Position numbers and translations under genes: made by a program. From the NCBI RefSeq assembly GCF_003334385.1, contig NZ_QOWN01000042.1: a stretch of 38,068 nucleotides of DNA; one strand, written 5' to 3'. Positions 15,037-15,166 of the stretch are shown here, one piece after another (position 1 is the first letter of the stretch; each line of letters begins with the position of its first letter). Below the pieces are notes generated by a model, which saw nothing but the letters and a program-made list of their open reading frames with translations, did no database searches and was not told the origin of the DNA. This DNA is from Escherichia coli (GTDB lineage: Bacteria; Pseudomonadota; Gammaproteobacteria; Enterobacterales; Enterobacteriaceae).

Positions 15037-15062
15037 TGGCACACCTGCCAAACAACCTGGCA
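15037..15062 (+). promoter_or_regulatory. Direct TGGCA repeats (TGGCA-N8-AAA-N5-TGGCA) upstream of tynA with a GATAAT -10-like hexamer at 15092..15097; candidate FeaR activator site
   Basis: FeaR (AraC family) is reported to bind TGKCA direct repeats at the tynA and feaB promoters (from memory; exact spacing not verified). Confidence 0.3.
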
Positions 15063-15166
15063 GGTGCAGGCAATCCCCTTTGCATCAGTACTGATAATGT
15101 GAACCTGACTAAACCGCCCACAGAGCGCGGTTGCTAACAAGAACACAACATCTGACGAGGTTAATA

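Follow-up and report, generated by a model that had tools for sequence, protein, structure and literature searches.

Phased direct repeats upstream of tynA and feaB in Escherichia coli, very probably the known operators of FeaR

FeaR and its closest described relatives

In the pBAD system, AraC binds araI1-I2 as a ligand-dependent dimer that reads two direct-repeat half-sites with 21-bp phasing, the proximal one overlapping a weak -35 element. XylS recognises TGCA-N6-GGNTA at the Pm promoter, where the A and B boxes occur as two direct copies 21 bp apart and the proximal copy overlaps the -35 by about 2 bp. MarA, SoxS and Rob act as monomers on a single asymmetric marbox, whose two sub-elements are read in adjacent major grooves by a double-HTH AraC-type domain. 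For FeaR itself, Zeng and Spiro reportedly defined in 2013 the site TGNCA-N8-AAA, with two copies in each of the tynA and feaB promoters. The motif string returned no relevant match in the full-text literature searched.

Both tynA and feaB are activated by FeaR, a regulator of the AraC family (PMC4640556). Aldehydes activate FeaR, which then binds PtynA, and biosensors for aldehydes and amines make use of the FeaR–PtynA pair (PMC11542736). The proposed effector is phenylacetaldehyde (PMC5540944, citing Zeng & Spiro). The stretch of DNA that we analysed (the window, 38,068 bp) contains the E. coli paaZ–tynA–feaB–feaR region, with 100% identity to E. coli chromosomes around the boxes described below. 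The genes that matter here are the following.

12874–14919, plus strand: paaZ (annotated in a RefSeq record with identical E. coli sequence)
15167..17440, plus strand: tynA, periplasmic copper amine oxidase, regulated gene (annotated in the same RefSeq record)
17498..18997, minus strand: feaB, phenylacetaldehyde dehydrogenase, regulated gene (RefSeq annotation of an identical stretch)
19233..20138, plus strand: feaR, AraC-family activator (RefSeq annotation; NCBIfam NF007243; Pfam)

Against the NCBIfam equivalog NF007243 'transcriptional regulator FeaR' (cut-off 199), the protein encoded by feaR reaches 503 bits. A 99%-identical cluster of FeaR carries PF12833, PF14525 (AraC_binding_2) and PF00165, so that the protein consists of a C-terminal AraC-type double HTH (PF12833, PF00165) and an N-terminal ligand/dimerisation domain (PF14525). 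Within E. coli the paaZ–tynA–feaB–feaR locus is accessory: the paaZ-tynA junction (14850-15250) is present in only 3167 of 5426 complete genomes, with three copies on plasmids.

Paired repeats at the tynA and feaB promoters

A preliminary description of this DNA had pointed to TGGCA direct repeats upstream of tynA, and they are present exactly as claimed on the plus strand at 15037-15062, where the sequence reads TGGCACACCTGCCAAACAACCTGGCA. The two pentamers start at 15037 and 15058, 21 bp apart, and a repeat finder returned AAGCTGGCA / AACCTGGCA as a direct repeat with the same spacing. The same description placed a cluster of four GTGACA/TGTCA elements upstream of feaB. All four exist (19068-19073, 19081-19085, 19089-19094 and 19108-19113 in plus-strand coordinates), but they span 19068-19113 and thus begin about 12 bp before the quoted interval of 19080-19130. 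On the feaB strand TGTCA occurs at 19094 and 19073, again 21 bp apart; from 19094 to 19058 this strand reads TGTCACAGCTGACAAAGCGAATGTCACAGCGAAAAAA, in which the repeat finder recovered a 20-nt direct repeat with 80% identity and a spacing of 21 bp. Together the two promoters contain four candidate half-sites, listed here with their information content among orthologous promoters.

15037..15052, plus strand: tynA distal FeaR half-site, TGGCA-CACCTGCC-AAA (1.95-2.0 bits on TGGCA and AAA, 23 orthologous promoters)
15058..15073, plus strand: tynA proximal FeaR half-site, TGGCA-GGTGCAGG-CAA (direct repeat; TGGCA 2.0 bits, CAA 1.9 bits)
19079..19094, minus strand: feaB distal FeaR half-site, TGTCA-CAGCTGAC-AAA (TGTCA 2.0 bits, 73 unique orthologous promoters)
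19058..19073, minus strand: feaB proximal FeaR half-site, TGTCA-CAGCGAAA-AAA (direct repeat; AAA 1.97 bits)

TGNCA-N8-AAA is exact in three of these copies. The exception is the tynA proximal copy, in which CAA replaces AAA at the cost of one mismatch; in most other genera, the distance from TGGCA to CAAA in this copy exceeds that in the distal copy by one base. Only two of the four feaB elements, the minus-strand TGTCA words at 19094 and 19073, read as half-site heads; the plus-strand tgtca (19081-85) belongs to the interior of the distal half-site. We also considered the element at 19108-13 (minus-strand TGTCA, 19113–19109) as a third half-site and rejected it: it lies 19 bp, not 21 bp, from the distal copy, and in most genera 19109–19113 reads TATCA or TGTCG and the invariant G is lost.

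Single copies of TGNCA-N8-AAA are not rare in the window (14 found, 9 expected). The strict pattern TGNCA-N8-AAA-N5-TGNCA, in contrast, has just two matches in the 38,068 bp, one at each promoter and each on the strand of its own gene, against an expectation of 0.08; one of 100 shuffles reached two. When the full 37-nt two-copy pattern was searched with up to two mismatches, the tynA site (one mismatch, the CAA of its proximal copy) and the feaB site (none) were again the only ones in the window. The signal resides in the paired, spaced arrangement. Neither the strict scan nor the scan allowing two mismatches placed the box at the feaR promoter or at the paa promoters in the window. Dropping the AAA requirement (TGKCA-N16-TGKCA) added one match, at 7659-7684 (TGGCAGATACCGCGCAACAGCTGGCA, minus strand), which lacks AAA and which we took as chance rather than as a FeaR box.

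Conservation across species and core promoter geometry

To compare other species, we used an alignment of FeaR orthologues and kept one genome per species, which gave 80 loci (1.10 Mb) ranging from Escherichia to Hafnia, Serratia and Pseudomonas, with FeaR identities of 96–47%. This test is decisive for the box being real. The strict pattern has 81 matches in the 80 loci (both strands), compared with 0.3 in shuffled sequence. Of these, 78 are located in the promoters of tynA or feaB, and three stand before other amine-oxidase genes, namely a Leclercia amine-oxidase paralogue (locus L007) and the Hafnia tynA genes. With AAA left free, TGNCA-N16-TGNCA stands upstream of tynA in 23 of the 26 loci in which the tynA 5′ end was captured and upstream of feaB in 74 of 74, mostly at −96 to −108 from the feaB start. 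The candidate FeaR sites proposed in the preliminary description are thus borne out as a two-copy box upstream of both genes in loci with feaR orthologues, and the N8-AAA-N5 spacing about which it had voiced doubt is exactly the geometry that is conserved.

To map conservation along the element, we anchored the promoters on the distal T and calculated information content by position. It peaks on TGNCA (1.9–2.0 bits) and AAA (1.6–2.0 bits), stands at 1.0–1.5 bits in the N8 and N5 stretches, and is low in the 21-nt spacer to the −10 (0.5–0.6 bits) and in the upstream flank (0.2–0.6 bits). The half-site is thus bipartite, with conserved blocks at positions 0-4 and 13-15 and a variable N8 between them. 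Weighting the four classes of half-site equally gave T-G-K-C-A-n-A-n6-(A/c)-A-A-n-C, a consensus that rebuilds TGKCA-N8-AAA independently. Across genera, the third base of the pentamer depends on the promoter: both tynA copies have TGGCA in 21 of 22 unique promoters, and for feaB both copies have TGTCA in 60 of 70. Within E. coli, 3166 genomes carry the 45-nt block at 15033–15077, and in 3150 of them it is identical; for the neighbouring 45 nt (14985–15029), 2091 genomes are identical, 512 are variant and the rest are unmatched. An alignment of whole intergenic regions was used qualitatively only, and an insertion in locus L065 disrupts it.

The two-copy box extends to the Pseudomonas FeaR-like loci (L074-L081; 47-50% identity), for example as TGGCACACCTGCCAACATGAATGGCAGGCAGGACAAA at 8016-8079 of L081. 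There it precedes a small ORF for a CxxCH c-type cytochrome and a FeaB-like aldehyde dehydrogenase.

Two further loci deserve mention. In Leclercia adecarboxylata (L007), a strict FeaR box at 1720-1745 precedes the gene of a divergent copper amine oxidase with only 44% identity to TynA, which suggests either that FeaR controls a second oxidase here or that tynA has been replaced. On the contig labelled 'Chryseobacterium sp. 18061' (L021), the feaR-feaB-tynA locus is enterobacterial, and its tynA and feaB boxes have the same sequences as in 'Citrobacter sp. 18056' (L013); this assembly is probably mislabelled or mixed.

Downstream of the boxes, the alignments point to one predicted -10 element per promoter.

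15092..15100 (hexamer 15095-15100), plus strand: predicted extended -10 of tynA, TG-a-TAATGT (orthologue conservation; overlaps GATAAT at 15093-98)
19031..19036, minus strand: predicted -10 hexamer of feaB, TACACT, or TAGACT in most genera (+58..+63 from the distal T)

For tynA, the GATAAT hexamer named in the preliminary description does occur at 15093-15098 on the plus strand; the register kept across genera, however, is TGnTAnnnT at 15092-15100, two bases downstream. Orthologues of tynA retain TGnTAnnnT or TGnCAnnAT here, with a 1-nt jitter in some lineages. The predicted tynA hexamer lies at +58..+63 from the distal T, the same offset as at feaB, where the predicted -10 averages 1.71 bits at a fixed position over 73 unique promoter sequences from 74 loci and appears as an AGTCTA block in the intergenic alignment. 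Six Pseudomonas loci carry GACAAT, GAGAAT or GAAAAT at +58..+63. A 17-bp spacer would put the predicted -35 at +35..+40, so that it shares 2 bp with the proximal copy (+21..+36), and the hexamers found there are poor (AATCCC at tynA, AAGTGA at feaB). Given the conserved -10 at +58..+63, the proximal copy would abut a weak −35, which is the usual AraC-family layout. A consensus scan of the gene strand returned no good σ70-like promoter in the tynA or feaB region. Weak core promoters of this kind are consistent with activator dependence, and the geometry predicts transcription starts near 15107 for tynA and 19024 for feaB.

The orthologue set also bears on two other ways of reading the tynA element. 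One takes it as a palindrome or hairpin, CACCTGCCA-N7-TGGCAGGTG at 15042-15066, which would serve a symmetric dimeric regulator or form an RNA or DNA stem-loop, such as a back-up terminator after paaZ. The E. coli inverted repeat is indeed 100% complementary over 9 nt (15042–50 / 15058–66), and the box region folds at -19.2 kcal/mol (z = -2.26), an energy reached by 4 of 200 shuffles. However, 9/9 complementarity is confined to E. coli and falls to 2-7 of 9 across the 19 remaining unique tynA promoters; at feaB it is only 1-6 of 9, while the direct-repeat positions are invariant. No compensatory changes that would keep the stem were seen in other genera, and no plus-strand terminator-like site lies at the tynA box, the paaZ terminator being upstream at 14930-14955. 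Neither an intrinsic terminator nor a conserved hairpin, that is, a stem kept across species and followed by a T-run, was found at tynA. We attribute the partial symmetry of the tynA box to the near-palindromic words TGGCA and TGCCA inside the half-site, and a functional palindrome strikes us as very improbable.

The second alternative assigns the TGGCA elements to the -24 part of a sigma-54 promoter (TGGCAC-N5-TTGCW). It is tempting in that TGGCAC at 15037-15042 is the -24 consensus word and tynA responds to nitrogen limitation. Yet the obligatory GG-N10-GC spacing of -24/-12 promoters never occurs: every tynA orthologue has AA (distal copy) or CA (proximal copy) where the -12 element would need GC, and the feaB copies have GT instead of GG. 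Nor does the annotation of the locus list a gene for an enhancer-binding protein. TGGCAC is the one word that the box has in common with -24/-12 promoters, a look-alike, and we give a sigma-54 promoter practically no chance.

FeaR as the probable regulator and its neighbouring elements

We conclude with high confidence that both boxes are operators of the AraC-family activator FeaR, whose own gene is adjacent. This reading, which the preliminary description had already favoured, agrees with conservation that peaks on TGKCA and AAA and with a fixed distance to a conserved -10 at both promoters. What speaks against it is the CAA of the tynA proximal copy, with its CAAA shifted by one base in most other genera, and the perfect inverted repeat of the tynA box, which in E. 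coli would permit a palindrome reading. The sequence of the boxes, their rarity, conservation and co-occurrence with feaR and their fixed distance to the -10 were computed here; the identity of the binder, its stoichiometry and its contact with polymerase are drawn from family knowledge and the literature. Most likely, an aldehyde-loaded FeaR dimer would place one double-HTH domain on each copy and activate σ70 polymerase.

In this model, each promoter would present two direct copies of the bipartite 16-bp half-site TGKCA-N8-AAA, 21 bp or two helical turns apart and oriented with the regulated gene. Each copy would be read by one FeaR subunit, whose two HTH motifs would contact TGKCA and then, about one turn further on, AAA, and the two subunits would be joined through their N-terminal ligand-binding domains. 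The proximal copy, which ends about 21 bp upstream of the predicted -10, would overlap the poor -35 by about 2 bp and occupy a class II activator position. From there, FeaR bound to the aromatic aldehyde made by TynA could recruit or activate sigma-70 RNA polymerase, at 15037-15073 for tynA and at 19094-19058 on the minus strand for feaB.

The box might instead be read by another regulator carried along with the locus, such as NsrR, NAC, CRP or PaaX. CRP and NAC are reported to act on feaR, and an article by Rankin et al. from 2008 reportedly deals, to go by its title, with NsrR control of this pathway. Against such a regulator, the box lies only upstream of the two FeaR-dependent genes in the window, and it accompanies feaR orthologues as far as Pseudomonas, where identity drops to 47% and the gene neighbourhood is different. 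Moreover, direct repeats, 21-bp phasing and a bipartite half-site are the hallmark of the AraC family, whereas NsrR, CRP and PaaX recognise palindromes. We therefore hold a regulator other than FeaR to be very unlikely.

As FeaR operators, the boxes most resemble araI1-I2, with which they share two phased direct copies at 21 bp and, by prediction, a proximal copy at a weak -35. They differ from it in half-site sequence and in an effector that is an aldehyde intermediate of the pathway, and there is no sign here of a distant O2-type site or of DNA looping. The likeness to XylS at Pm lies in bipartite direct copies at 21 bp and an aromatic effector, whereas the box sequences differ and the spacing within a site is N6 for XylS and N8 for FeaR. 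Although the C-terminal domain of FeaR weakly matches the RamA, SoxS and MarA models and would read two sub-elements in a similar way, MarA, SoxS and Rob bind one asymmetric box as monomers, and at the FeaR promoters two phased copies are conserved.

The FeaR boxes are real, were correctly interpreted in the first place and are already known. We take the copies at 15037-15073 and 19058–19094 to be those of Zeng and Spiro, and nothing essential appears to differ from the published site. The result carries little weight as a discovery, being the published operator of a well-studied E. coli regulon re-derived from sequence alone. What we probably add to that paper is modest: the conservation of the box and of its distance to the predicted -10 over some 80 species, Pseudomonas among them; a third pentamer base that is nearly always G at tynA and nearly always T at feaB; and the finding that only two of the four feaB elements belong to the site.

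The G-versus-T difference provides a testable lead on the differential induction of tynA and feaB. It could, as a tentative suggestion that we would sooner doubt than adopt, encode a fixed affinity hierarchy. Were this so, tynA would fire first at low FeaR-aldehyde and make the coactivator, and feaB, whose product destroys the coactivator, would follow, giving the reported differential induction a cis-encoded basis. As part of the same suggestion, the whole module of two copies and a -10 at +58 would reach FeaR-like regulators of Pseudomonas that control a cytochrome c / aldehyde dehydrogenase operon. For minimal or tuned promoter design, useful guides are the box limits (15037–15073), the K at position 3, the variable N8 and the 21-bp distance to the −10.

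Several other elements lie near the boxes. About 29 bp upstream of the tynA box, ATTATGCATGA-t-GTGTACATCTA at 14986-15008 resembles the 11-1-11 inverted repeat of NsrR (consensus AAGATGCATTT) at 14 of 22 positions; outside Escherichia its conservation is lost (flank about 0.2 bits), and it varies within E. coli. Just after the paaZ terminator, 14962-14976 forms a perfect 15-bp palindrome, TGTGAC-GTT-GTCACA, whose arms are CRP-like, with 5 instead of 6 nt between TGTGA and TCACA. The predicted tynA 5' leader contains a stem-loop, AACCGC-N9-GCGGTT (15112-15132), of unremarkable energy (z = 0.37). It is absent from the short-leader Enterobacter group, and its pairing is seemingly kept with both sides changed in Raoultella and Klebsiella (GCCGC..GCGGC) and in Entomohabitans (ACGGCG..CGCCGT).

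On the feaR side, the region 19099-19127 directly upstream of the feaB distal half-site contains a conserved block, CCGCAAAT, which on the feaB strand reads ATTTGCGG. Beside it, Enterobacter-group genomes carry the NAC-like ATA-N9-TAT where E. coli has ATAAGCGGTTATTGT; the block may be part of feaR control rather than of FeaR binding. Closer to feaR, a tandem TGCAACA-N4-TGCAACAAT with 11-bp spacing (19182-19201) lies 32-52 nt upstream of the feaR ATG and is conserved in many genera. Just upstream of this tandem is a conserved T.TTTCCTATAGT block (19148-19159), a candidate feaR -10, and given this order the repeats may be located in the feaR leader or form an operator.
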